IMG/VR virus record: IMGVR_UViG_3300008261_000093
Coordinates: 1-52,461 of that record
Origin: a virus
Lineage: Duplodnaviria; Caudoviricetes
Length of the DNA stretch: 52,461 nucleotides
Reading direction: 5' to 3' (one strand)
Below, in pieces: positions 29,118-42,393 of the stretch. Positions within the stretch are counted from its first letter, which is position 1; each line of letters opens with the position of its first letter. The notes under the pieces were generated by a model. That model did not search any database. It was not told the DNA's origin and saw only the letters and a list, made by a program, of their open reading frames with translations. A program made the position numbers and the translations under genes.

Positions 29118-32100
29118 TTATAGCTCCGATGTTTGGCGAACAAAGCCACGATTAGCCTTGTTAGTTTGTACCCCGCCAACTACACTTCTTTCACGTTTAG
29201 CTTGTTCTTGTGGAGCTTTCAGTAGTATTGACAACGATTGTCTTTTAAATCCATTACGAACTCTTGACTGTTGTAGTTCTTCCCAATCATTTCGTGCATC
29301 TGATAGACCCACTCCACTTCTATACGCACGTGCATACGCACGTTTGATTTCGCTGGCCTTATCATTATAAAACTTCTCGTACTCAAACTTGGCATTTTGT
29401 AAAAATTGTTTATCGGTCAACTGCTTAGTAGGTAGCCCAATTCCGGCCATAAATGCTTCGGCAAAGCTAATATCCTCTGCTGGGATAAGTACATCGTCTC
29501 TACGTGATGTAACCCCTTCAGTGGCAAATCTATAGCCCTTCATGGCATTGGCTACACCGGTAGGCATAAGCTGCTCTAAGCCCTTGTAGTAGTCCCCCTG
29601 ACCCATTAATGATATGCCGTCAGCGGCTTTAAGGGTTAAACCACCGAATGGGCCGGTCATTAGGGCAAAGCCTGCTTCGGCAACACCCCTACGGCTAAAG
29701 TCTATATCTGTATATGGCAGGATTGAGAGCATCTGACCCATACCGAGCTTGCCCGAAAGGTCTACACCCAAAGCTGCAGGCACACCCTTAACTATTAAGT
29801 CTGCAAGGGTATCATCGCCAATAGCCCGACGCATAGCCAACTCTGGGTTATCAGGCTCATCCTCATCTCCAAAGACCAGACCATACAGGAATGATAGAGC
29901 CGCAAACCCTGGTAATCCCATTACCCCGCCCATAGCTGCGGTATGTCCAATTGTAAACATCAGGGCGCGGCGACCAATTCTGCGGGTATCTGCATCTTGA
30001 CCTGCAAATGCGTCGTTAAATAAGCGAGCCATCAGGCTTAGCTGGATAAGCTGGAACTTACGGAACTGGGTAGCTAAACGACCTAAACCTTTACGACTAA
30101 TACGTGGAGCATTAAATCCACTGTAGTCACCATGGGTTCTGTAGATTATGCTGTCAGCGTAGTTAATAGCATTGGCTTTATTGTTAGTTCTAGCCTCAAG
30201 ACGGTACGCAGCCACTGCAGTTGCTACACGGTTAATGGATTCAATGTCTTGGGCAATCCCACGGAGATATTCAGTAGCACGACCAAACTTATCTAACTTA
30301 GAGTCTTCAGTAGATCTCCAGCGTCCTAAGTCCTGCTCCAGGCTAATGTCAATTCTTCCCCGGTTAACCAGTTCTTCGACAACATCCTTAACATCCTGTG
30401 GCAGCTTGTTATAACTGTCTTCGCCAAGACCATGCCTACGAATAACGCTGGCAATATCAGTATACGCACGAGTAAACTCTTTCCATGACTTATCGTAGCC
30501 ATGCTTAGCACCGACTACTGGCAAGGACATCATGAATGGCTGAGTCATGTTCTGTAAATAGTAGGATGGGTTAGTTAGTAACATCCATACAGAAGTCGTA
30601 TTTAAAGCCTTATCAATAAATGGCGATGGCTCGTAGTCTAGCCCCATTACATGACGCTTCATAAACTCGTTGTAGTACCGGCTACGTTCTGCTCGAGTAC
30701 CTTCTGTGCCTTTTCTGGCTTCCTCTTTCATATCCCGTAAAGAGTCATAGATCTCTTCAGAATTCTCTAAAGACGAGATAAAGTGGGCTGTAGCACGGCC
30801 TTGCGTAGCAAATGCACGCATCATATCTTTTTCAGCACCGGCAATCTTACGGCGACGCTTCTCAGACTGGCGAGCAGACTGCTCAGACAACAGGCTTAAA
30901 TGAAGATCGGATAGTAAGCGATTAATCGTTCGTTCAGACTTGTCAGTAGTGTTGCTGTCTTGGGTGTCGGCTATTTGGTCAGGGGCAGACTTGGGGTTAT
31001 CCCTAATGCTTTCCTGATCTAGGTATGCCTGTGAACGACCAACAACTACATAATTACCAAAACGCTTAAGTGGAGCGTAAGGACCTTTATTTCCCATACG
31101 CATCAAAGTTCTGTATTCAGCTAACGAATTGGCTTTTTTCTTAGTAAGTTCGGCTACTTCAGTAACATCACCGGCTTTTTGCGCTGCAGCAATTAATGCA
31201 TCGTATTCGGTATTGATGTTGTTAATAACCGCATCTTGCATTGCCTTTAGCGTCTGGCGCCCATGATCAAAGACTTCTTTAATAAGGTTTTGGGCTACTA
31301 CAGGGAATGCTTCAAAACGAGTTTTTAACTCTGGGTCAATCTTCGAACCCTTAATGTTAGCGTCATAACCCCACTCACCTTTCATGGTTGAGTCTTTAAT
31401 AAATGCGTTTACGCTATTCTCGCCAACACCCCTTACCTCATTTGGTAAGGCATCATACTGTTGCAAAATCTTATCGATACGACGCTCAAGAGAAGTCCTA
31501 ATTGCTTGCTGGGCTTTTACCAACTGAACATAGCGTTTTGCCGATGGCAGATATTTAGATGCTAAGTCAGCCAAATCTTCGGTAAATGCAGCAAATGGTA
31601 AGCCCTTCTTAGCAAAGTCAATGATGTTATCGGTAATTGCTTGTAATGGACCACGGATTGGCTTGGGTAGTTTTGCTACCTGCTGGGCTGCTGTTTGACG
31701 TGCGGCATTTAAACCTGCTTTGGAGAACTGTACTTTTTCTGTGTCAGCACCAACTAAAGACAAAGCACGGAAGATGTCTTCGTCGCTAAACATGACGATG
31801 TTTTTGGTAATTCTTTCTTCCGATGTATTTTTACGAGATGTGGCATCTTTAAATTGATTACCTTTAATACCTTGTTCATACAAAAACTGAGACACTACCC
31901 GTTGAGCTTGTTGTCCAGAAGCTAATACTTCTTTGTCTTTTACAGCTTTAACTAACCATCGTGGATCACCTAAAGCAAGAGCTTTTATACCAAAATAAAG
32001 GTCATGTCCTGTGGCTTCTTCTAAAAGTACTCCAGCATTACCTAAAGCTGCCTCAATAACCATAGCTTGGTCGTCAGGAAGATTTTTTAAAATGTTGTAG

Positions 32101-35100
32101 ATATATGGCTGATCTTTAACCTTCTTATCAAGATCAAGAAGCTCTTCTGGACGAGCATTAATATCCACCCGCATTAAATTACCAGGTACGCCTTCAGTAG
32201 CTGTAGAAAAATCAATTGGATTTAGCTTGTTTAGCGCATCAATAAAGCGCTGATTTGTACCACTTCTGGTACCAATATCATTATTGTCGATACGTTTTTG
32301 CCAGCTTTCAATTTCAGCTTTAATAGCTTGCAAAACAGTTGGATTTTTTACAGATAATCCCATCATGGCAGATACAGGACTTTTCATGCGTCGTATAACA
32401 TCAAGAGCTACGTTTGTCTCAATATCATCACCAGTTTTACTAAAAGTAGCCATAACTGATCTACGCAGGTCTCTAACAGACCGGCCTTTGTAGCGATAGC
32501 CTACATCTTTAGTTTTGTTTTTAACATCAGTTTTCCAGTACTGATATGCAATTCCTGCTTTTTGAGCAAGATATGTACCCCAACCAAAAGCTTGAGCACC
32601 TTCTCCAGTACCCATAAATCTTTGGTCAAATCTACGGAATGAGGCTGCAGTACCATGCCATGTGCCACCTATTTCTAGTCGTGCGGCACCATAAGCAATA
32701 TTAATAATGTCCTGAGCGTCAATTTTGTCAGGATCAAACGTATTCAAACGACGAATTGCAGTTTTAAATGCAGCCCACAAAGTACGGAACCAACGGCCTA
32801 ATTGGGTATCAGGTTTAGTAGCGGTTGGGTCTATGTCGTGTAATACAGCTTCTTCTATAAAGTAAGCAATTAATTCTGTATTAGCTTGTTCATTTTCAAC
32901 ACCTGTAGAACGCTCTAACGCTTTTTTAGCAATTACTGACTCAATAGAACCGTCATCTTTTTTAGCCCACTCAAGAACAGTATCTACTAAGTAGTCAAAC
33001 TGCTTCTCTGTAAGCATCTTTTGGATGCCTAAATGTGAGCCTACTTCGTGCATAAACACAGCACGTGCTGTGCCTGGCTTAATATTATCTGCAATCAAAT
33101 ATGCTTTATTTTTCCAAACAAACGCTTGGTCACCGGCTTTAGGATTGGCTGCAATTTTAGCGTCAAGAGGCAAGTCTTTTACCGACTGGAAGACTTCTAC
33201 ACGACGAAGATTTTCACCACCAATAAAGTCTTTTAACTCTTGGCGTATTTCTTCAGCGTTGGAACTTTCGCCACGTTCAACAGCTTTAGAAAACTCTGGT
33301 TTATTGCGCTCAAAGACAATATTCATGTCGGCAAGTTTTGTATTACCAGTTTCTACTGAGGCTTGCCAATCATCTTGTACTTCTGGAGATAGCTCGTCGT
33401 AAGTAGGTAGCCCATACTGCTCAGCTTTAGTGTCCCACTCTTCTCGTGCTGTTTCTTCTAGCGTCCTCGCGCTGACTTCTTCATCGGCTTGTTCATCTTC
33501 TGTGGCAGCTTCGACCCTTTCGGTGTCTTTGCTTGGAACTCTCTTGCCAGTTTCGGCTTGTTTGCGTACAGGAACCCCTTTTGTGCTTCGCTTTTGAACG
33601 GCATTTTTCTCTTCTCCTTTACCAATACGAATCTCTTCGCGGCGGTTAATTTCTTTAACAATGGCTTGAATTTCTGCGTCTGTAATACGCTCATCAATAG
33701 CTAAGTTGTTGAGTTCAAAGTCTTTTAAAGCCTGTAAACCCTGCTTCTTAAACTTCTGATAAGTTCTGTTTGCAGCCGATGCATCCTCAAGTTCAGTAGC
33801 TCCGCTTTCTTGTGGGTTAAATACTCTAAATCCAGAAGCACCACCACCTTCTTTTTCGGTAGTTTCTTCACGACCTAAAGTCTGCTCACCCTCAGCTTCC
33901 ATAGCAGCATCTTCAGCCATGGATGGACCAGCCTCATCTGATACAGCAGCCTCACGAGCAGCCGCAGCTTCAAAGTCTAAGTCTTGCTCAGTAAGTGTTT
34001 CGGCTTCAGTAGCAGCTTCAGTTTCAGCCGTAGCTACAACCATTAGGTTATAAATTTGATCTTTTGTATAACCTAGGCGTTTAGCCGCTTCAAAAATACG
34101 AGCACCCCAAGTCTCTTGAGCTTTTGGCCCAGCAATTTGAGCAATACGAGCATCAGATACACCATACTCATCCGCAATCTGTACAGAGGTCTTTTCCCCT
34201 GTAAGGTATTCCATAACAATACCGCCATCACGAGTACCGAACGCTGAATTAACAATCGTTCTAATTCTCTCAATTGCCTCTAGGCGGTCGTCAGGAATTA
34301 CTTGCGTTTCTTGCTCTTGCCCAACACTGGGAATGGCATTATCGCCCCCACTGGTACTGGGCTCAACCCGTGGTCGTACACTTCCTGGTCCGACATCTTG
34401 GACTGTACTCGGGAGTATAAGGTTGCTTCCTGTCCCGACGGGTCGAATTTGGTCGGGTCGTACAGGCCCAACGAGTCCACCGCTTGTTTCTGCTGCTCTT
34501 CCTTGCTCTGGTACTGCTCCCACCCCGGTAGGCACTCGCAATTGCTGCTTTTCATTTTTTGCTCCTTTAGTTGTGTTTGTTTCGGATGCTAATTGCTGAA
34601 GGGCTACAAAAGCTGGTGCATCCTTACCAGTTAAAGCCTTATAAAAATTGTTGAGCTCATCGGCTTCTTTCAAAGCTTTTGGGCCTTCCAAAGTACTAAT
34701 TAAAACCTCTGCACGCTCGGCAGCTTCTGCTTTATCTGCCGAAGTATCGATACCCCACTCAGATAAGAATTTAACTGCAGCAGCATTAACAGCCTTGGCA
34801 GTAGACTTAAGAGGTACTTTTACAGCACCAGAAGATAGAGTTGCGCCAATAAGCGACTTTTGCTCTGGGGTCTTATCTTTATTAAGTGCGTCGAGCTCTG
34901 CCAAAAACTTAGTTGCATCAGCCTGACTAAATAGTGTTTTCCCTGCAATGTTATAACGACCAGCTACTTGAGTTGGCTGTACACCATAGGTAGAGGAAAT
35001 CTCGTCAAATGCAGCTTGAGTTTCTTGTTGTTTTTGAGCAGCTTGTTGTTGTGCTACTTGGGCTGCTTGCGCTTGCTGCGCTGCAGCAACTTGTGCTGAA

Positions 35101-36212
35101 GATGGTACGGGTGGGCCGGCTTGCTCAGGTGGTTGTGGGCCAACTAATGCTTCTCTTGGGGGTGGGCCGACCAGAATTTCTGAGCTATTAGCGTCAATAG
35201 CTTTATTAATAGCATTTTCGTCAGGGGTTTTACCCTCACCAGTACTGATGTTAGTAGAGCCAGGCAATAGACTATTAGGTGCAGTAACTCTATTTAAAGT
35301 ACCGACAACGGCGCCAGTACCACCGCCCAATAAACCACCTAAAGTAGCTGAGCCAATAACACCACTTAAAGGCTGAATAGTAGGAGCAAACTCACCTGCG
35401 GCAAGGTTAGCAGATAACTTAGTAACACCTTCTTCAACAAATTCTGAGCCTGCTTCAGCTGCAGTTGTTTTTAATATGCTTTTTGTACCAGCGGCAAATG
35501 CTTTATCAGCACCAACTAAACCTGACGCTGCACCAATAATAAATGGTAGTGGGGCTGCACCTCTAGCTGCACGGGTGGCAATCTGCTCACGCTCTTCAAT
35601 CGGTAAGTCTTGTAGTTCAGGAGCATTCATTACCATTTGGTAAGCATCGCCAGACGCATCACCACCTGCAAGAACACCACCGGCAGTACTACCGCCAGCT
35701 AAACCAGCTCGGGCAACACCTCTCTCGGTTAGACCAAGGGCGCCACCTATCATTCTTCCACCTTTAATTGCGGCACCTGGGCCAACAAAACTACCAATTG
35801 CTTGGGATGCGGCTAATAAAGGATTTTCTTTTACATATTTAAATGCACCTGCGGCTTGTTCACCTAAGTCTTCGGACTGCATTGAACGACCAAGTTGATA
35901 CTTAGCTTCGGCTGCAGTAAGTGATTGTTTCTTTTCACCTTCTTCAATAAAGCGACCGATAGCAGCAGAAGTTTCTGTGCCTGGTTTTACTAGATCAATA
36001 GCTGCTTTGGGTAAAGATGCTACAGCATTTCCAAACTCAATAACATAATCGTTAGCTGCGCCTAATACACCTCGTTTTTCGGATATACCTAAATAGCCTG
36101 CTACTTCCATGGGGGAAAGACCAGTTAGCTCGACCCCTTTATCTAAGATCTGTCGATCAGTTAGGTCTTTAGCCCATGGTGCTGCTTGGCGAATATCGTC
36201 AAACAAAGACAT
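29118..36212 (-). CDS. Large polyvalent internal virion / ejection protein (HTH, HEVGSH metallopeptidase-like, ADP-ribosyltransferase-like, PLxRFG domains)
   Basis: 2364 aa, last of the ejection cluster; TSVQIADEYGVSDARIAQI, FMHEVGSHLG, WHGT..FD..GEGAQAFGWGTYL, YAPLKRFG. Confidence 0.85.
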   Translation of the reverse strand: MSLFDDIRQAAPWAKDLTDRQILDKGVELTGLSPMEVAGYLGISEKRGVLGAANDYVIEFGNAVASLPKAAIDLVKPGTETSAAIGRFIEEGEKKQSLTAAEAKYQLGRSMQSEDLGEQAAGAFKYVKENPLLAASQAIGSFVGPGAAIKGGRMIGGALGLTERGVARAGLAGGSTAGGVLAGGDASGDAYQMVMNAPELQDLPIEEREQIATRAARGAAPLPFIIGAASGLVGADKAFAAGTKSILKTTAAEAGSEFVEEGVTKLSANLAAGEFAPTIQPLSGVIGSATLGGLLGGGTGAVVGTLNRVTAPNSLLPGSTNISTGEGKTPDENAINKAIDANSSEILVGPPPREALVGPQPPEQAGPPVPSSAQVAAAQQAQAAQVAQQQAAQKQQETQAAFDEISSTYGVQPTQVAGRYNIAGKTLFSQADATKFLAELDALNKDKTPEQKSLIGATLSSGAVKVPLKSTAKAVNAAAVKFLSEWGIDTSADKAEAAERAEVLISTLEGPKALKEADELNNFYKALTGKDAPAFVALQQLASETNTTKGAKNEKQQLRVPTGVGAVPEQGRAAETSGGLVGPVRPDQIRPVGTGSNLILPSTVQDVGPGSVRPRVEPSTSGGDNAIPSVGQEQETQVIPDDRLEAIERIRTIVNSAFGTRDGGIVMEYLTGEKTSVQIADEYGVSDARIAQIAGPKAQETWGARIFEAAKRLGYTKDQIYNLMVVATAETEAATEAETLTEQDLDFEAAAAREAAVSDEAGPSMAEDAAMEAEGEQTLGREETTEKEGGGASGFRVFNPQESGATELEDASAANRTYQKFKKQGLQALKDFELNNLAIDERITDAEIQAIVKEINRREEIRIGKGEEKNAVQKRSTKGVPVRKQAETGKRVPSKDTERVEAATEDEQADEEVSARTLEETAREEWDTKAEQYGLPTYDELSPEVQDDWQASVETGNTKLADMNIVFERNKPEFSKAVERGESSNAEEIRQELKDFIGGENLRRVEVFQSVKDLPLDAKIAANPKAGDQAFVWKNKAYLIADNIKPGTARAVFMHEVGSHLGIQKMLTEKQFDYLVDTVLEWAKKDDGSIESVIAKKALERSTGVENEQANTELIAYFIEEAVLHDIDPTATKPDTQLGRWFRTLWAAFKTAIRRLNTFDPDKIDAQDIINIAYGAARLEIGGTWHGTAASFRRFDQRFMGTGEGAQAFGWGTYLAQKAGIAYQYWKTDVKNKTKDVGYRYKGRSVRDLRRSVMATFSKTGDDIETNVALDVIRRMKSPVSAMMGLSVKNPTVLQAIKAEIESWQKRIDNNDIGTRSGTNQRFIDALNKLNPIDFSTATEGVPGNLMRVDINARPEELLDLDKKVKDQPYIYNILKNLPDDQAMVIEAALGNAGVLLEEATGHDLYFGIKALALGDPRWLVKAVKDKEVLASGQQAQRVVSQFLYEQGIKGNQFKDATSRKNTSEERITKNIVMFSDEDIFRALSLVGADTEKVQFSKAGLNAARQTAAQQVAKLPKPIRGPLQAITDNIIDFAKKGLPFAAFTEDLADLASKYLPSAKRYVQLVKAQQAIRTSLERRIDKILQQYDALPNEVRGVGENSVNAFIKDSTMKGEWGYDANIKGSKIDPELKTRFEAFPVVAQNLIKEVFDHGRQTLKAMQDAVINNINTEYDALIAAAQKAGDVTEVAELTKKKANSLAEYRTLMRMGNKGPYAPLKRFGNYVVVGRSQAYLDQESIRDNPKSAPDQIADTQDSNTTDKSERTINRLLSDLHLSLLSEQSARQSEKRRRKIAGAEKDMMRAFATQGRATAHFISSLENSEEIYDSLRDMKEEARKGTEGTRAERSRYYNEFMKRHVMGLDYEPSPFIDKALNTTSVWMLLTNPSYYLQNMTQPFMMSLPVVGAKHGYDKSWKEFTRAYTDIASVIRRHGLGEDSYNKLPQDVKDVVEELVNRGRIDISLEQDLGRWRSTEDSKLDKFGRATEYLRGIAQDIESINRVATAVAAYRLEARTNNKANAINYADSIIYRTHGDYSGFNAPRISRKGLGRLATQFRKFQLIQLSLMARLFNDAFAGQDADTRRIGRRALMFTIGHTAAMGGVMGLPGFAALSFLYGLVFGDEDEPDNPELAMRRAIGDDTLADLIVKGVPAALGVDLSGKLGMGQMLSILPYTDIDFSRRGVAEAGFALMTGPFGGLTLKAADGISLMGQGDYYKGLEQLMPTGVANAMKGYRFATEGVTSRRDDVLIPAEDISFAEAFMAGIGLPTKQLTDKQFLQNAKFEYEKFYNDKASEIKRAYARAYRSGVGLSDARNDWEELQQSRVRNGFKRQSLSILLKAPQEQAKRERSVVGGVQTNKANRGFVRQTSEL
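33458..33604 (-). CDS. Nested 48-aa basic protein (MPFKSEAQ... type) in the +1 frame of the large gene
   Basis: AAGGAG at 33619-33614, 9 nt before ATG; MPFKSEAQKGFLYANKPKLAREFQAKTPKGSKLP... Confidence 0.7.
   Translation of the reverse strand: MPFKSEAQKGFLYANKPKLAREFQAKTPKGSKLPQKMNKPMKKSARGR
34298..34555 (-). CDS. Nested 85-aa protein in the +1 frame of the large gene
   Basis: AAGGAG at 34567-34562, 6 nt before ATG; composition unlike a shadow ORF. Confidence 0.55.
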   Translation of the reverse strand: MKSSNCECLPGWEQYQSKEEQQKQAVDSLGLYDPTKFDPSGQEATLYSRVQSKMSDQEVYDHGLSPVPVGAIMPFPVLGKSKKRK

Positions 36213-37603: not shown

Positions 37604-38335
37604 TTAAATCTCCAATATCTCGTGGATTCCAGCCATGTCAAGTGCTACAGCTTGGCTAATTTGTCTAATAATACTCGTTACTTCTTTATGTTTTTCAGGG
37701 TGAAACTTTTTAATATACTTCATGCGTTCTTTGCTATCCCCACAATAAGCAGTGCAATTCCAGCAATCTAAAGACGAATGAGCCATGCTCAAACGCTCAG
37801 TAATTTCTACATTATTTGCTTCTAAAAACTTAGTTACTTTACTATTATCCCAGTCTTTTATGGGGAAATAGTATTCAATACCATCAAAAGTATCACCTGA
37901 TTTAAAGGGAGAACGATGAGCTTCATCAGATCGCTGTCCACGAATAATAGCTGTTACTCCTAGTTTTCTAGCTATATCATCAGCTGGCTTCCAAAAGTTG
38001 TCGTGGCAACAATCCATGTAACTGCGAATTTTAATTGGTTTACTTTTAGTACAAGCTTGACCATATGAAGAATAAGAAATTGGAACTATATCAGCAGGAT
38101 AGCCGTGTTTTGCTATAGAAGCTGGCTGGTCAGTTTGGACTTCAAGAAAATTAGGTACAGAGCTACGAATTACTTTCATCATTTCAATAATTTCTGGAAA
38201 CGCTGCGCCTGTATTAACCCAAATAAGAATCGTTTTATCCAAATAGTCTTTTATTAGGTGCAAACAAGCAAGCGAATCACGCCCACCTGAAAACATCAAG
38301 GCTACTTTTTCATGACGGTTAAAAAAATCTTTCAT
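37604..38335 (-). CDS. PAPS-reductase-family (PP-loop) protein
   Basis: FSGGRDS, VNTG, GQRSDE, FPIKDW, SLDCWNCT; likely start MKDFF at 38335 in a TAATG overlap. Confidence 0.85.
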   Translation of the reverse strand: MKDFFNRHEKVALMFSGGRDSLACLHLIKDYLDKTILIWVNTGAAFPEIIEMMKVIRSSVPNFLEVQTDQPASIAKHGYPADIVPISYSSYGQACTKSKPIKIRSYMDCCHDNFWKPADDIARKLGVTAIIRGQRSDEAHRSPFKSGDTFDGIEYYFPIKDWDNSKVTKFLEANNVEITERLSMAHSSLDCWNCTAYCGDSKERMKYIKKFHPEKHKEVTSIIRQISQAVALDMAGIHEILEI

Positions 38336-38360
38336 TAGTAAGCTGTAATAGCCGCTCCAC

Positions 38361-39032
38361 CTAAACTTGATTACCAAATTGACCTTGAGATAGAGCAATT
38401 GCATCCATTTTCTTAGCCCATCCTAACTGCTCAGCCGCAGTACGGGCACGATTAGCAGCCGCAGAACCAACCGCAGCTTCCATAATAGAGTTAACATTAC
38501 CTGTAGATACAGAACGACCAGATGTTGGGTCAATACCAAAAGACTGTAAACGACGCTGCTCATCGGCTGCCTTAATACCAAACGCAGATTTAACATCGCC
38601 AAGGGCTTCGGAAGCTATACGCTCACGATTTGCGTCTGTATCATAGTCGGTGGCAGCTTTATAAATGCTTTCACGCATTGGCTTGCCTTTTGTTTCAAAC
38701 TCTTCCATGGTTTTTTTAGCAGAACTAATCTGCATTTCTTGGAGTTCTCTATCTAAAGCAAACTGCTCATCTGCTCGTACGTCTTGTTTTTCCGCCTGTT
38801 CTTTTATTTTAGGCCAAACATCATTTTTCCAATTATCTAAGTACTCTCTAGAAATCTTAGCCATTTCTTGCTGAGCAATACCAATATTGGGATCTGGAGC
38901 AGGAGCAGAAACACTGGCTCCGCCACCGCCTTTACCACCACCTTCAAGTGTCATGCCACGGGCAAAAGGCCCAGACCCACCACGGGGGGAAAACGCCCGC
39001 TCGGGTAGCATCGATTCTAAGTCGTATCTCAT
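38361..39032 (-). CDS. Putative ejection (DNA pilot-like) protein, apparently truncated or frameshifted near the C-terminus
   Basis: EGGGKGGG..APAPDPNIG pattern; an out-of-frame SLGGAAITAY* tail follows and is coupled to the next gene. Confidence 0.65.
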   Translation of the reverse strand: MRYDLESMLPERAFSPRGGSGPFARGMTLEGGGKGGGGASVSAPAPDPNIGIAQQEMAKISREYLDNWKNDVWPKIKEQAEKQDVRADEQFALDRELQEMQISSAKKTMEEFETKGKPMRESIYKAATDYDTDANRERIASEALGDVKSAFGIKAADEQRRLQSFGIDPTSGRSVSTGNVNSIMEAAVGSAAANRARTAAEQLGWAKKMDAIALSQGQFGNQV

Positions 39033-39451
39033 CGCTTAATCTCCAGCCATCGGCACTCTTCTTTTAGCATGCCATATAAAATAAAATTACTTCCATCGCT
39101 AGCACCTTTACGAATCAAACCTTCTCGTTTAAATCCAAGATGCTCATCAAACCTTTGTGCGTCTAAATTGTCTTCTCTAACAAGCCCTGTGATTCTGTAA
39201 CATTTTACCTGCAAAAAAGGATAAGCAAAACAACGATATAGGTAGTCTTTAGTCATCCATCGCCTACCTGGTACTGCTGCTACATGCATCATAATTGATG
39301 GTCCTGTGTACAAATTAAACACCACACCAGCAATTAACTCACCATCTTCTTCTAACCCAATTGCCACAGCCTTACCAAAATCGTCTTCGTCGATCCTAGA
39401 ACCGACCCAGGGGATTATCCTATCTTCTTGGCCATAAATAGCTGTTTTCAT
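39029..39451 (-). CDS. GNAT-family acetyltransferase-like protein
   Basis: N..AQRFDEHLGFKREG..R, YGMLKEECRWL; usual position before ejection genes. Confidence 0.8.
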   Translation of the reverse strand: MKTAIYGQEDRIIPWVGSRIDEDDFGKAVAIGLEEDGELIAGVVFNLYTGPSIMMHVAAVPGRRWMTKDYLYRCFAYPFLQVKCYRITGLVREDNLDAQRFDEHLGFKREGLIRKGASDGSNFILYGMLKEECRWLEIKR

Positions 39452-41536: not shown

Positions 41537-41989
41537 CTAACTAAATATTCTAGTGCCTTTAGAATCAATAATCAATGCACTTTTTCGAGGTGTCCCATCA
41601 GCGGAGTTAGGCACAGAAATATGTGTCCATCCGCCTGGCTTACCTTCTTCATAGAATTCTTGAATAATCTGATCAAACGGTACACCCCTAGCAATAATAA
41701 GTTTACATGCATCACGGGGGGTCATTCCTGGAACTCGAATGTCTGCCGCGCATCCTGTACGGTGCTGGCTTGAATCTTTTGATCCTACTCCGTCGTTTAC
41801 TTGCTTAGAACGAAATGCTGAATTAACAATAATAGGCACTCCTAGAGCGTCCCGTACCATTTCTAGTAAGTAAGCTAGGCGAGTAAGATTTTTTATTTCT
41901 TCTTCATTTGGGGTGTTATCCCAGCCTTTTCTAGCGGCTATGTCTGAAACAATCAATTCTTCAAGGGAAAAATGGGGGGTTAGTTTCAT
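41537..41989 (-). CDS. Endolysin, peptidase M15 family
   Basis: LTPHFSLEE, SAFRS, SQH..GCAADI, WTHIS. Confidence 0.9.
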   Translation of the reverse strand: MKLTPHFSLEELIVSDIAARKGWDNTPNEEEIKNLTRLAYLLEMVRDALGVPIIVNSAFRSKQVNDGVGSKDSSQHRTGCAADIRVPGMTPRDACKLIIARGVPFDQIIQEFYEEGKPGGWTHISVPNSADGTPRKSALIIDSKGTRIFS

Positions 41990-42393
41990 TCCTTTTTGTC
42001 CTTTGCTTTCATGTCCATAATCTTTTCAAGGGTGCGGCCACCAAAGTAGAAAGACATAATCAGCATACCCCACTGGCCTAGGAGCTCAACATAGTTATTA
42101 TTAACCTCAATATCCCATGCCGACATCATCGCAAACATGGAATAAACCATCAAAATAAATACTAAAGTCATGGGGCGGATGTTTTTAGATAGCCATGAAT
42201 CACTAGCCATATCCGCTTCTTGGCGTTTGGTTAGCTCTTGGGCTTCAATATTATCGGCGTTTAATTCTGCCAATTTACCTTCTTGTTGCATCTTAAGAAG
42301 TTCAGCTTGAGCTTTGGCTTTGGCTTCTGGATCAGGAATAAACTTATCTAGTACCTTCATCCCAACATCAACTAATGCGGCTAACGGAAACAT
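41986..42393 (-). CDS. Holin (3TM / GTA-type)
   Basis: SDSWLSKNIRP, two TM helices, FYFGGRT. Confidence 0.85.
   Translation of the reverse strand: MFPLAALVDVGMKVLDKFIPDPEAKAKAQAELLKMQQEGKLAELNADNIEAQELTKRQEADMASDSWLSKNIRPMTLVFILMVYSMFAMMSAWDIEVNNNYVELLGQWGMLIMSFYFGGRTLEKIMDMKAKDKKE

Follow-up and report, generated by a model that had tools for sequence, protein, structure and literature searches.

A probable protein-coding gene nested in the +1 frame of a giant phage virion-protein gene

Small genes lying wholly inside larger ones are exemplified by the Rz/Rz1 pair: the small gene is read in the +1 frame, with a ribosome-binding site and a start codon of its own, and each of the two genes yields its product. 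In such spanins, the o-spanin is a lipoprotein, recognisable by its signal sequence and lipobox cysteine. A Shine-Dalgarno-like (SD-like) element inside a coding region can also stimulate frameshifting, as in prfB and dnaX. In addition, alternative frames of GC-moderate genes are often open for tens of codons. The embedded spanin pair of phage lambda and its relatives is among the closest known systems to the locus described here, as far as the available parts of the sources go (PMC6139136, PMC5295617). A second class for comparison is formed by the overprinted, de novo overlapping genes of viruses, again as presented in the accessible portions of PMC8227390, PMC3494269 and PMC6195259. Finally, the polyvalent proteins of phages and conjugative elements were described by Iyer et al. 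2017 (PMC5512222). The available text of that paper contains neither "overlapping" nor "frameshift", its single "embedded" refers to peptidase domains, and out-of-frame genes within linkers are not described in it. Our literature search found no paper on out-of-frame genes in PLxRFG or polyvalent genes; supplementary files lay beyond this search and might hold such annotations.

Here we analyse a small reading frame within a giant phage gene. Judging from the DNA and its relatives, the segment 34298-34555 (minus strand) is most probably a true gene that encodes a protein in the +1 frame of that giant gene. A second nested gene is found in the same host.

The nested reading frame and its giant host

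The window, that is the whole stretch of 52,461 nucleotides that was analysed, carries on one strand the features collected in Table 1.

Table 1. Positions of the two nested genes, their signals and their host in the window
Feature	Positions	Strand	Details and basis
Nested +1-frame gene (candidate)	34298-34555	minus	85 codons + TAA; ORF listing and translation
Shine-Dalgarno AAGGAG of the 85-aa gene (candidate)	34567-34562	minus	read in the sequence; 6 nt 5′ of ATG
ATG of the 85-aa gene	34555-34553	minus	sequence
TAA of the 85-aa gene	34300-34298	minus	sequence
Nested-frame TAG	34589-34591	minus	11 codons upstream of ATG 34555
Second nested +1-frame gene (candidate)	33458-33604	minus	48 codons + TAG; ORF and translation; periodicity, dS
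Shine-Dalgarno AAGGAG of the second nested gene (candidate)	33614-33619	minus	9 nt upstream of ATG 33604
Giant host ORF, phage polyvalent/virion protein	29118-36212	minus	2364 aa; C-terminal PLxRFG (tail-700) domain
Host-frame residues 553-638, Gly/Pro/Val/Gln-rich, without aromatics	34299-34556	minus	composition; overlaps the 85-aa gene

The original prediction had named an AAGGAG, a 6-nt spacer, an ATG at 34555 and an 85-aa product. All of these were borne out in the sequence, the spacer reading CAAAAA, and the protein that had been quoted matches the translation. The ATG lies 1657 nt from the start of the giant ORF at 36212, which places it in the +1 frame. The TAG located upstream limits entry into the nested frame from the host frame. 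Within the window, the arrangement AAGGAG-N4-9-ATG was seen 12 times against 2.6 expected, a count that none of 100 shuffles reached. Ten of these sites start ordinary ORFs and the two others are those of the nested ORFs. Along the 7.1-kb giant ORF, the sense strand has AAGGAG at exactly two sites, both at the nested ORFs. The ORF of the 85-aa gene was also predicted by a gene caller on two other contigs (P0003).

In three metatranscriptomic libraries there are contigs that cover the 85-aa ORF; this gives weak support, as such libraries can contain DNA. Parts of 33400-34700 are uncovered by the RNA-library contigs.

Residues 1743-2343 of the giant protein match NF032893 (PLxRFG) at 1.7e-89 with 301.1 bits, above the curated cut-off of 100, and its C-terminal region matches phrog_10089 ("DarB-like") at 3.3e-54. 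An ART-PolyVal (PF18760) match of 18.6 bits (0.0034) stays below the Pfam gathering cut-off of 31.2. A HExxH motif can be read from the translation, and the middle modules vary. An HTH domain had been placed between the two nested ORFs; none of the libraries names one, and the sub-threshold ART-PolyVal match returned by Pfam lies elsewhere in the protein. The host-frame stretch under the 85-aa gene contains 15.1% Gly, 11.6% Pro, 14.0% Val and 7.0% Arg, with zero aromatic residues. Its earlier description as a Pro/Gly/Val/Arg-rich linker therefore holds for Pro, Gly and Val, while Arg is barely enriched over its 6.0% in the rest of the protein.

Conservation and selection in the two frames

Eighty related loci were found with the 85-aa protein (18 metagenomic, 61 viral and one MAG fragment), and the embedded geometry, a small ORF wholly inside a larger same-strand ORF in another frame, is present in 80/80. 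The nested frame is open in 18/18 metagenome loci, in the same frame relative to the long ORF. In the viral and genome loci, the host frame is open over at least 300 aa with the same geometry in 62/62, and the nested frame is open over 75-141 aa in 59/62, the three others (L159-L161) being cut by a contig end. Identity of the nested protein to the window's copy goes down to about 35%. Among 59 distinct sequences, the nested ORF measures 74-92 aa and ends with TAA in 57 cases and TAG in two. A strong SD stands at 56 of the 59 nested starts, as compared to 3.1% of 2566 other +1-frame ATGs, a count that is mildly inflated because Met codons preceded by a GGA-type motif were preferred in choosing the start. 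The expectation that SD, ATG and stop would be kept in related genomes was thus confirmed, and the frame is unbroken wherever the ORF is complete. Searches of the INPHARED phage records with blastn and tblastn gave no match to the region or to the 85-aa protein. Of the 15 loci with the host N-terminal domain in common, 10 have the nested family and five do not, according to a scan that used a 5-row alignment (A7), the 16-row A6 being too divergent.

The position of these signals also bears on a possible trans-frame product. A +1 shift near the SD-like sequence would yield a giant protein truncated to about 552 aa and carrying the 85-aa sequence as an alternative C-terminus. Such an event would be helped by the run of six A just 5′ of the ATG in the window, and by a nested frame whose open stretch ahead of the ATG has a median length of 18 codons. 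However, the A-run is not conserved, relatives having GCAACAAATG, GCAAAAGATG or GCTAAAGATG instead. In 57 of the 59 distinct sequences, the SD core lies 6-7 nt 5′ of the ATG, and such uniform spacing is the geometry of initiation. The nested-frame stop is located 0-61 codons upstream of the ATG in relatives; it is at most 5 codons away in 4/59 and 0 codons away in at least one, so that a shift site could hardly be accommodated. Finally, no 0-frame stop or obvious pause codon follows the SD. The programmed frameshift class was rejected, as no conserved shift site with an open new frame was found, and we consider a trans-frame product very unlikely.

We then compared the variation of the two frames. 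In the overlap (84 codon columns), variable sites fall at host codon positions 1, 2 and 3 in the numbers 30/11/4, as compared to 118/76/333 and 87/49/165 in the two flanks (sum 205/125/498; chi-square 49.7, p = 1.6e-11). The switch of periodicity to the nested frame has sharp bounds, at host residues 541-645. In the host frame, dS drops from 0.56-1.18 in the flanks to 0-0.086 in the overlap, and dN/dS rises from 0.08-0.13 to 2.4-3.8. Over 119 pairs, the median dN/dS is 0.224 for the nested frame and 1.97 for the host frame, with the nested value lower in 112/119; mean identity is 56.5% for the nested protein and 41.4% for the host-frame peptide, with the nested value higher in 171/171 pairs, these pair counts not being independent events since the 59 sequences are related. 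The nested protein is better conserved than the giant protein at this place, and one DNA stretch therefore very probably encodes two proteins. At deep divergence, the entropy is 1.08 bits at nested position 3 against 0.94 bits at position 1. This excess is modest, as dual coding would yield, and the signal is less clean than that of a single-frame gene.

An element acting at the nucleotide level (RNA structure, regulatory, recombination or packaging signal), with the open +1 frame as a by-product, would account for some of these observations. Indeed, nucleotide conservation forms an island over the 258-nt stretch, host-frame dS is near zero there, and the match to an RNA-library contig from a relative is confined to 34281-34573, the flanks of this contig being unlike on both sides. 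Yet the variation is periodic in the nested frame (position 3 > position 1 > position 2). In relatives with 35-50% protein identity, the motifs, the length and the SD, ATG and stop are still in place although the DNA has diverged. Folding gave z values of -0.15 and -0.82, with 78 and 42 of 200 shuffles folding at least equally well; no Rfam match was obtained, and a promoter and terminator scan gave nothing above shuffles. Such an element appears exceedingly unlikely as the explanation.

A chance shadow ORF without function has in its favour that other shadow ORFs of 60-125 aa occur in the giant gene. The comparative evidence (periodicity, dS, dN/dS, SD, resampling and conservation) stands against it. 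In particular, the probability that the nested frame is open given the host peptide is 0.003-0.27 per lineage, yet this frame is open in every lineage. As far as the comparative data reach, the chance shadow ORF is refuted, and we give it next to no credence.

Is the host frame itself translated through this region? The "giant ORF" might rather consist of two genes flanking an ordinary small gene, the frame-0 read-through being untranslated or unimportant. The poor conservation of the host-frame peptide (41% vs 57%) and its dN/dS above 1 would agree with this, as would the downstream architecture, which varies among relatives. However, frame 0 is stop-free all through the region between the flanking modules, so that ribosomes leaving the upstream module must read through, and it is open in 80/80 loci. 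All indels seen in the alignment are multiples of three. When codons were resampled, the probability that the host frame is open given the nested protein was 0-0.0102 in 15/15 lineages, which means that selection keeps frame 0 open. Two separate genes are thus highly improbable. Overall, both frames are maintained by selection, which acts mainly on the nested protein; the host frame is only kept stop-free, its sequence being barely conserved.

Our preferred reading is an embedded gene translated on its own. The late mRNA of the giant ORF would also carry an internal ribosome-binding site (AAGGAG, 6 nt, ATG), at which 30S subunits would initiate independently of the giant ORF and make an 85-aa protein ending at its own TAA. 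For ribosomes engaged on the giant ORF, these 258 nt would be frame-0 codons of a Gly/Pro/Val-rich linker, probably disordered, between two conserved modules.

The products and the origin of the nested genes

Alignments of the 85-aa family (P0002) show the conserved motifs LPGWEQYQSK and FNPSxQE. The N-terminus, MKSSNCEC in the window, is hydrophilic and its cysteines are not invariant, some members having no cysteine at all; a hydrophobic patch is followed by a basic C-terminal tail. The single 85-aa protein has no family match in Pfam, PHROGs or NCBIfam. Twenty members of the family gave no match in PHROGs and Pfam either, the best PHROG values being 0.083-0.13 in 2/20. A profile search of the PDB gave no match (best E 1.1, ribosomal protein uS15), and the ESM Atlas offered no usable match or cluster. 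AlphaFold gave models of low to moderate confidence (pLDDT 60.5 and 66.4, pTM 0.20 and 0.38), and Foldseek with such a low-confidence model gave 0 matches at E <= 0.001 in BFVD and the PDB. When 1.84 billion representative proteins were searched with a profile, only 12 matches, of 55-142 aa, were returned. By these searches, the 85-aa product is an orphan family. We infer a small, partly helical late protein that probably acts with or alongside the giant protein. A role as assembly or packaging cofactor, or as a co-packaged nucleic-acid-associated protein, for example, is a tentative guess.

Three chimeric-looking proteins, P0004-P0006, at first suggested a recombination site or mobile module. 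P0004 is explained by chimeric assembly: NDPTKFDP is native to a phage tail protein that is abundant and unrelated, and that has an identical 22-nt word in common with the nested gene of a relative (L007). The window's own nested gene differs from this word at one base. P0005 and P0006 are probably chimeras too: they come from contigs of 582-614 bp, joined at comparably short words in common; a search of IMG/VR did not find P0006.

The second nested gene has a very basic 48-aa product that begins with MPFKS. Here the periodicity switch covers host residues 871-915 and host-frame dS is 0.06; the gene is conserved in relatives, together with its SD and ATG. Its protein matches phrog_1375 (small phage proteins, function unassigned) at 6.4e-5, as do those of relatives at 4e-5 to 1.8e-4, whereas the 85-aa protein matches no PHROG. 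Among the best 80 loci of the 48-aa family, 49 carry the gene as a stand-alone copy and 27 as a nested one, and in 4 it forms an in-frame N-terminus. The giant protein, used in tblastn against these 80 loci, matched only three, and the flanks of the stand-alone copies are heterogeneous. INPHARED gave no match to a member of the 48-aa family.

The original prediction had viewed the giant gene as a compound locus whose linkers carry separately initiated genes. For both ORFs, the periodicity switch, the collapse of dS and the conserved SD and ATG argue for this view. It had further supposed that ancestral genes were fused by read-through of the small genes between them. Fusion has some support in the case of the 48-aa gene, with its stand-alone, nested and in-frame fused copies. 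As for the 85-aa gene, no stand-alone copy exists among the 80 loci found through it, all of which are nested. The comparison of codon usage between the two frames did not come out in favour of the prediction: similarity to the flanks is -0.235 for the nested frame and -0.172 for the host frame, and the nested frame is better in only 15/58 loci. This weak test points mildly against the nested frame being the older one, and leans to overprinting inside an existing linker. A more general scheme, in which the "linkers" in giant genes of these lake phages would be frame-0 shadows of older functional small genes located at module fusions, with the small proteins as dedicated partners, is possible but rather doubtful; the 48-aa gene, with its three kinds of copies, would be its smoking gun. 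Under this scheme, partners made from the same late mRNA could be chaperones, neutralisers of enzymatic domains or co-packaged basic proteins.

Because gene callers forbid embedded genes, the 85-aa family is almost invisible in protein databases, as illustrated by the 12 matches obtained in 1.84 billion representative proteins against at least 80 phage loci that carry it. The locus represents strongly supported dual coding in a dsDNA phage, with selection carried by the embedded frame and not by the annotated one. If the host stretch were analysed as though it had one frame only, its dN/dS would suggest positive selection, which is an artefact. The results suggest the linkers of giant polyvalent proteins as places to seek hidden small genes, and the two nested genes offer a testable route for the assembly of giant multidomain phage genes.

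Comparison with known systems

As in Rz/Rz1, the 85-aa gene lies inside a larger ORF of the same strand, in the +1 frame, with its own candidate SD and ATG. Unlike Rz1, its predicted product has neither a signal peptide nor a lipobox cysteine context, and unlike Rz, the host is a 2364-aa PLxRFG virion protein and not a small inner-membrane i-spanin. In contrast with Rz/Rz1, selection acts here mostly through the embedded frame, and the host frame encodes a linker. The endolysin (41537-41989) and holin (41986-42393) genes are 5-6 kb away from the giant gene. A two-component spanin was rejected, as there is no lipoprotein signal, the host is not an i-spanin, and holin and endolysin are elsewhere.

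The host resembles the polyvalent proteins, as these are presented in the available text of PMC5512222: its ORF is giant and multidomain, with a weak ART-PolyVal-like match, a HExxH motif, a DarB-like C-terminus and variable middle modules. The nested gene itself resembles overprinted genes, as the accessible parts of the papers cited above describe them, in that two proteins would come from one DNA stretch, and the product is an orphan whose structure is predicted with low confidence. It is also like them in being restricted to 10/15 host-family loci, in that the searches found no stand-alone homologue and in its slightly less genome-like codon usage. It differs from overprinted genes, taken within the same limits, in that the "new"-looking frame is the more constrained of the two (dN/dS 0.22 vs 1.97).

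Anatomy of the nested ORF and its genomic setting

The nested ORF studied here (protein P0002) is carried by an uncultivated linear viral genome of 52,461 bp (completeness estimate 91%), and near-identical DNA was found in 14 lake or freshwater metagenome runs. As originally predicted, sequence and translation agree on an AAGGAG motif located 6 nt before the ATG at 34555, which opens an 85-aa ORF in the +1 frame of a giant ORF. In the nested frame, a TAG codon is present 11 codons 5′ of this ATG. The host frame (frame 0, that of the giant ORF) was also rightly described as Pro/Gly/Val-rich. The peptide that it encodes over the nested ORF, host residues 553-638, contains 15.1% Gly, 11.6% Pro and 14.0% Val and is devoid of Trp, Tyr, Phe and Met. 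G, P, V, R, S, T and Q together account for 72% of these residues as compared to 40% elsewhere in the giant protein.

In the window, 12 AAGGAG-N4-9-ATG sites were observed for 2.6 expected, a number reached in 0 of 100 shuffles. Ten of them start ordinary ORFs and the other two start the two nested ORFs of the giant gene, whose SDs are the only sense-strand AAGGAG motifs in its 7.1 kb. The SD-ATG pairing at the nested ORF is therefore more than a chance match.

Around the giant ORF, the minus-strand genes make up a virion and lysis module of podovirus-like type. The C-terminus of the giant protein carries a PLxRFG domain (NF032893, 1.7e-89, 301 bits for a cut-off of 100), a region labelled 'DarB-like' by PHROGs. 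In Pfam, the sole match of the giant protein was a sub-threshold ART-PolyVal, and the HTH domain that had been placed between the nested ORFs was not named. A PAPS-reductase-like gene and an acyl-CoA N-acyltransferase-like gene lie within the virion gene block, beside the giant gene. Among close relatives, the giant protein is 76-84% identical up to residue 916 and nearly unalignable past it. Alignability is lost (window 29118-33460) just beyond the second nested gene, with the three codon positions equally variable there; at the sequence level, the pattern resembles a mid-protein module swap.

Features of the giant gene, its nested ORFs and the surrounding module
Feature	Position	Strand	Details
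Giant host ORF	29118-36212	-	2364 aa; nested ORF in its +1 frame
Nested ORF	34298-34555	-	85 codons; ATG 34555, TAA 34300-34298
SD of nested ORF	34567-34562	-	AAGGAG; spacer CAAAAA before ATG
Second nested gene	33458-33604	-	48 aa, very basic, MPFKS start; ATG 33604 to TAG 33458; +1 frame of giant ORF
SD of second nested gene	33619-33614	-	AAGGAG; 9 nt 5′ of ATG 33604
PAPS-reductase-like gene	37604-38404	-	phrog_424, 2e-26
Acyl-CoA N-acyltransferase-like gene	39029-39451	-	phrog_4470, 2.5e-48
Internal virion protein		-	phrog_511; module around giant ORF
Endolysin, holin		-	module around giant ORF
Tail fibre		-	module around giant ORF
Structural proteins		-	phrog_399, phrog_437; module around giant ORF

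Selection on the two frames

The window was compared with three close relatives. Variable sites at host codon positions 1/2/3 numbered 30/11/4 in the overlap as against 118/76/333 and 87/49/165 in the flanks (chi-square 49.7, p = 1.6e-11). Since nested position 3 coincides with host position 1, the periodicity in the overlap belongs to the nested frame. A sliding scan (30 codons) bounded this switch at host residues 541-645 and revealed a second one at 871-915, at the second nested gene. Consistently, host-frame dS was 0-0.086 in the overlap and 0.56-1.18 in the flanks, the corresponding dN/dS values being 2.4-3.8 and 0.08-0.13.

Pairwise dN/dS was then computed on 59 distinct nucleotide sequences from 79 loci (119 pairs at 80-98.5% identity), leaving out truncated (L150, L160) and startless (L159, L161) loci. 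Median dN/dS was 0.224 for the nested frame as against 1.97 for the host frame, the nested value being lower in 112 of 119 pairs. Mean identity was 56.5% for the nested protein and 41.4% for the frame-0 peptide, and was higher for the nested protein in 171/171 pairs of 19 distinct sequences; pairs are phylogenetically non-independent, which tempers these counts. At deep divergence, entropy at nested positions 1/2/3 was 0.94/0.69/1.08 bits, the right order in a compressed form, as dual coding predicts.

An open host frame could mean that the giant ORF is in fact two separate genes with a small gene between them. We resampled the synonymous codons of the nested protein with the codon usage of the flanks (5000 trials per lineage) in 15 of the 19 distinct sequences, four near-duplicates being left out. 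The host frame remained open in 0 to 1.02% of trials in all 15 lineages; conversely, the nested frame was open given the host peptide in 0.28-27%. From these frequencies, the giant protein must read through, selection on codon choice preserving that ability, which rules out a small gene between two separate genes. Judged by sequence, the region is dual-coding.

An 845-nt metatranscriptomic contig of a relative resembles the window solely over 34281-34573, where the nested ORF and its SD lie (10 differences); its sequence on either side is unlike that of the window. In this contig, the nested gene is an island of nucleotide conservation amid diverged flanks.

Conservation, initiation and product

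No INPHARED phage record matched the nested region or protein. From other collections, 80 loci were gathered through the nested protein: 61 from an IMG/VR scan, including the 3 close relatives of a first scan, 18 from a metagenome scan with the nested-protein alignment, and one (L163) from a 1261-bp Actinomycetota MAG contig. Every metagenome locus (18/18) and every other locus (62/62) has a long ORF running uninterrupted over the homologue in the same relative frame, the nested gene being in its +1 frame. The nested frame itself is open in 18/18 and 59/62, the remaining three (L159-L161) having partial ORFs interrupted by contig ends. Identity to the window protein goes down to about 35-45%, while the motifs LPGWEQYQSK, FNPSxQE and R..SK and a hydrophobic patch that precedes a basic tail are kept. 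Family members are 74-92 aa long and begin 535-823 aa into the giant ORF, right after a conserved module ending 'LTG'; the region 3′ of the nested gene is variable. SD, ATG and stop were found conserved in an unbroken frame, with the SD core and a TAA stop each present in 57/59 sequences.

L163, the sole genome-collection match, has its nested gene in an open host frame like the others; it may point to an actinobacterial host or be a binning artefact. The database protein P0003 is the nested ORF as called by one gene caller on two contigs. The three other of the four database matches (P0004, P0005, P0006; contigs of 582-940 bp) are fusions with a phrog_394 tail protein, a cytochrome-c-like tail or an ExoIII C-terminus, none of them related to the nested protein. 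The P0004 join falls on a 22-nt word common to the tail gene of an abundant phage (L025:2001-2480), so all three are probably assembly chimeras.

In 57/59 distinct sequences, the SD core ends 6-7 nt 5′ of the ATG. A strong 5-mer SD precedes 56/59 nested starts as compared to 3.1% of 2566 other +1-frame ATGs of the same giant ORFs, with a mild bias because start picking preferred Met codons with a GGA-type motif. The A-run before the nested ATG of the window, on which a frameshift might have occurred, is not conserved in relatives, and in 4/59 sequences no more than 5 codons separate the ATG from the nested-frame stop before it. Together with the conserved SD spacing, these features speak for independent initiation and against frameshifting. 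No support was obtained for RNA-level explanations of the conservation: folding z-scores were -0.15 and -0.82, Rfam gave no match to the region, and promoter-like and terminator-like sites did not exceed shuffles. Contigs of three metatranscriptomic libraries, one of them the 845-nt contig above, cover the nested ORF, weakly suggesting its transcription, since such libraries can contain DNA.

Pfam, PHROGs and NCBIfam yielded no homologue of the nested protein, and no match was obtained in the PDB, by sequence or fold, or in the ESM Atlas. Among 1.84 billion representative proteins, a profile search returned only 12 members (55-142 aa), which fits a family existing almost solely in nested form and overlooked by gene callers. 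AlphaFold2 predicted short helices (pLDDT 60.5, pTM 0.20 with 16 rows; pLDDT 66.4, pTM 0.38 with 59 rows). In 10/10 members checked, the net charge of the last 12 residues lies between +2 and +6. The product would be a small late protein working jointly with the giant virion protein or alongside it, its basic tail possibly tying it to nucleic acid or to the virion. Overall, comparative support is good at this level, and 34298-34555 is very probably a real overlapping gene.

Origin and known systems

Among 17 loci returned with the N-terminal domain of the giant protein, 15 were examined, leaving out one duplicate and one truncated locus. Ten of these carry the nested family and 5 lack it (L175, L177-L180), the match of the latter being confined to residues 1 to about 320. 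In these five giant ORFs, a nested-family ORF went undetected in at least 1283 aa downstream of the domain, so the gene is confined to certain lineages or modules. None of the loci found has a stand-alone copy, and by codon usage the host frame is slightly the more genome-like, the nested frame scoring better in 15/58 loci. Patchy presence, lack of a stand-alone copy and codon usage tend to favour overprinting of a linker that already existed. A young overprinted gene would not typically be the more constrained of the two frames, as the nested one is here, so either frame may have come first.

The second nested gene has a like periodicity switch and loss of host-frame dS, which is 0.06 over it versus 0.56-1.18 in the flanks, and it is conserved in relatives reaching far enough. 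Its product matches phrog_1375 (6.4e-5) and belongs to a large family (at least 345 IMG/VR matches). In the 80 best loci of these at least 345 matches, the gene is stand-alone in 49, nested with the same +1 geometry in an ORF of at least 300 aa in 27, and joined in frame as the N-terminus of a long ORF in 4. L206 has the small gene flanked by a 644-aa ORF on one side and by one of at least 821 aa on the other. A stand-alone ancestor later spanned by a giant ORF is plausible for this gene, and partly supports the original prediction of ancestral genes fused by read-through of the small genes between them. Homology to this giant protein was detectable in only 3/80 loci, too few for split ancestors to be shown.

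In the searched text of Iyer et al. (PMC5512222), who surveyed polyvalent proteins, overlapping or out-of-frame genes are not mentioned, and no listed paper on PLxRFG looked relevant by its title and abstract. In the literature searched on overlapping or embedded phage genes, supplementary files aside, this case was not found described. A spanin function was rejected, the nested product having neither signal sequence nor lipobox and the host gene not being an i-spanin. The architecture itself is already known from embedded phage genes, Rz/Rz1 for example (PMC6139136, PMC5295617).
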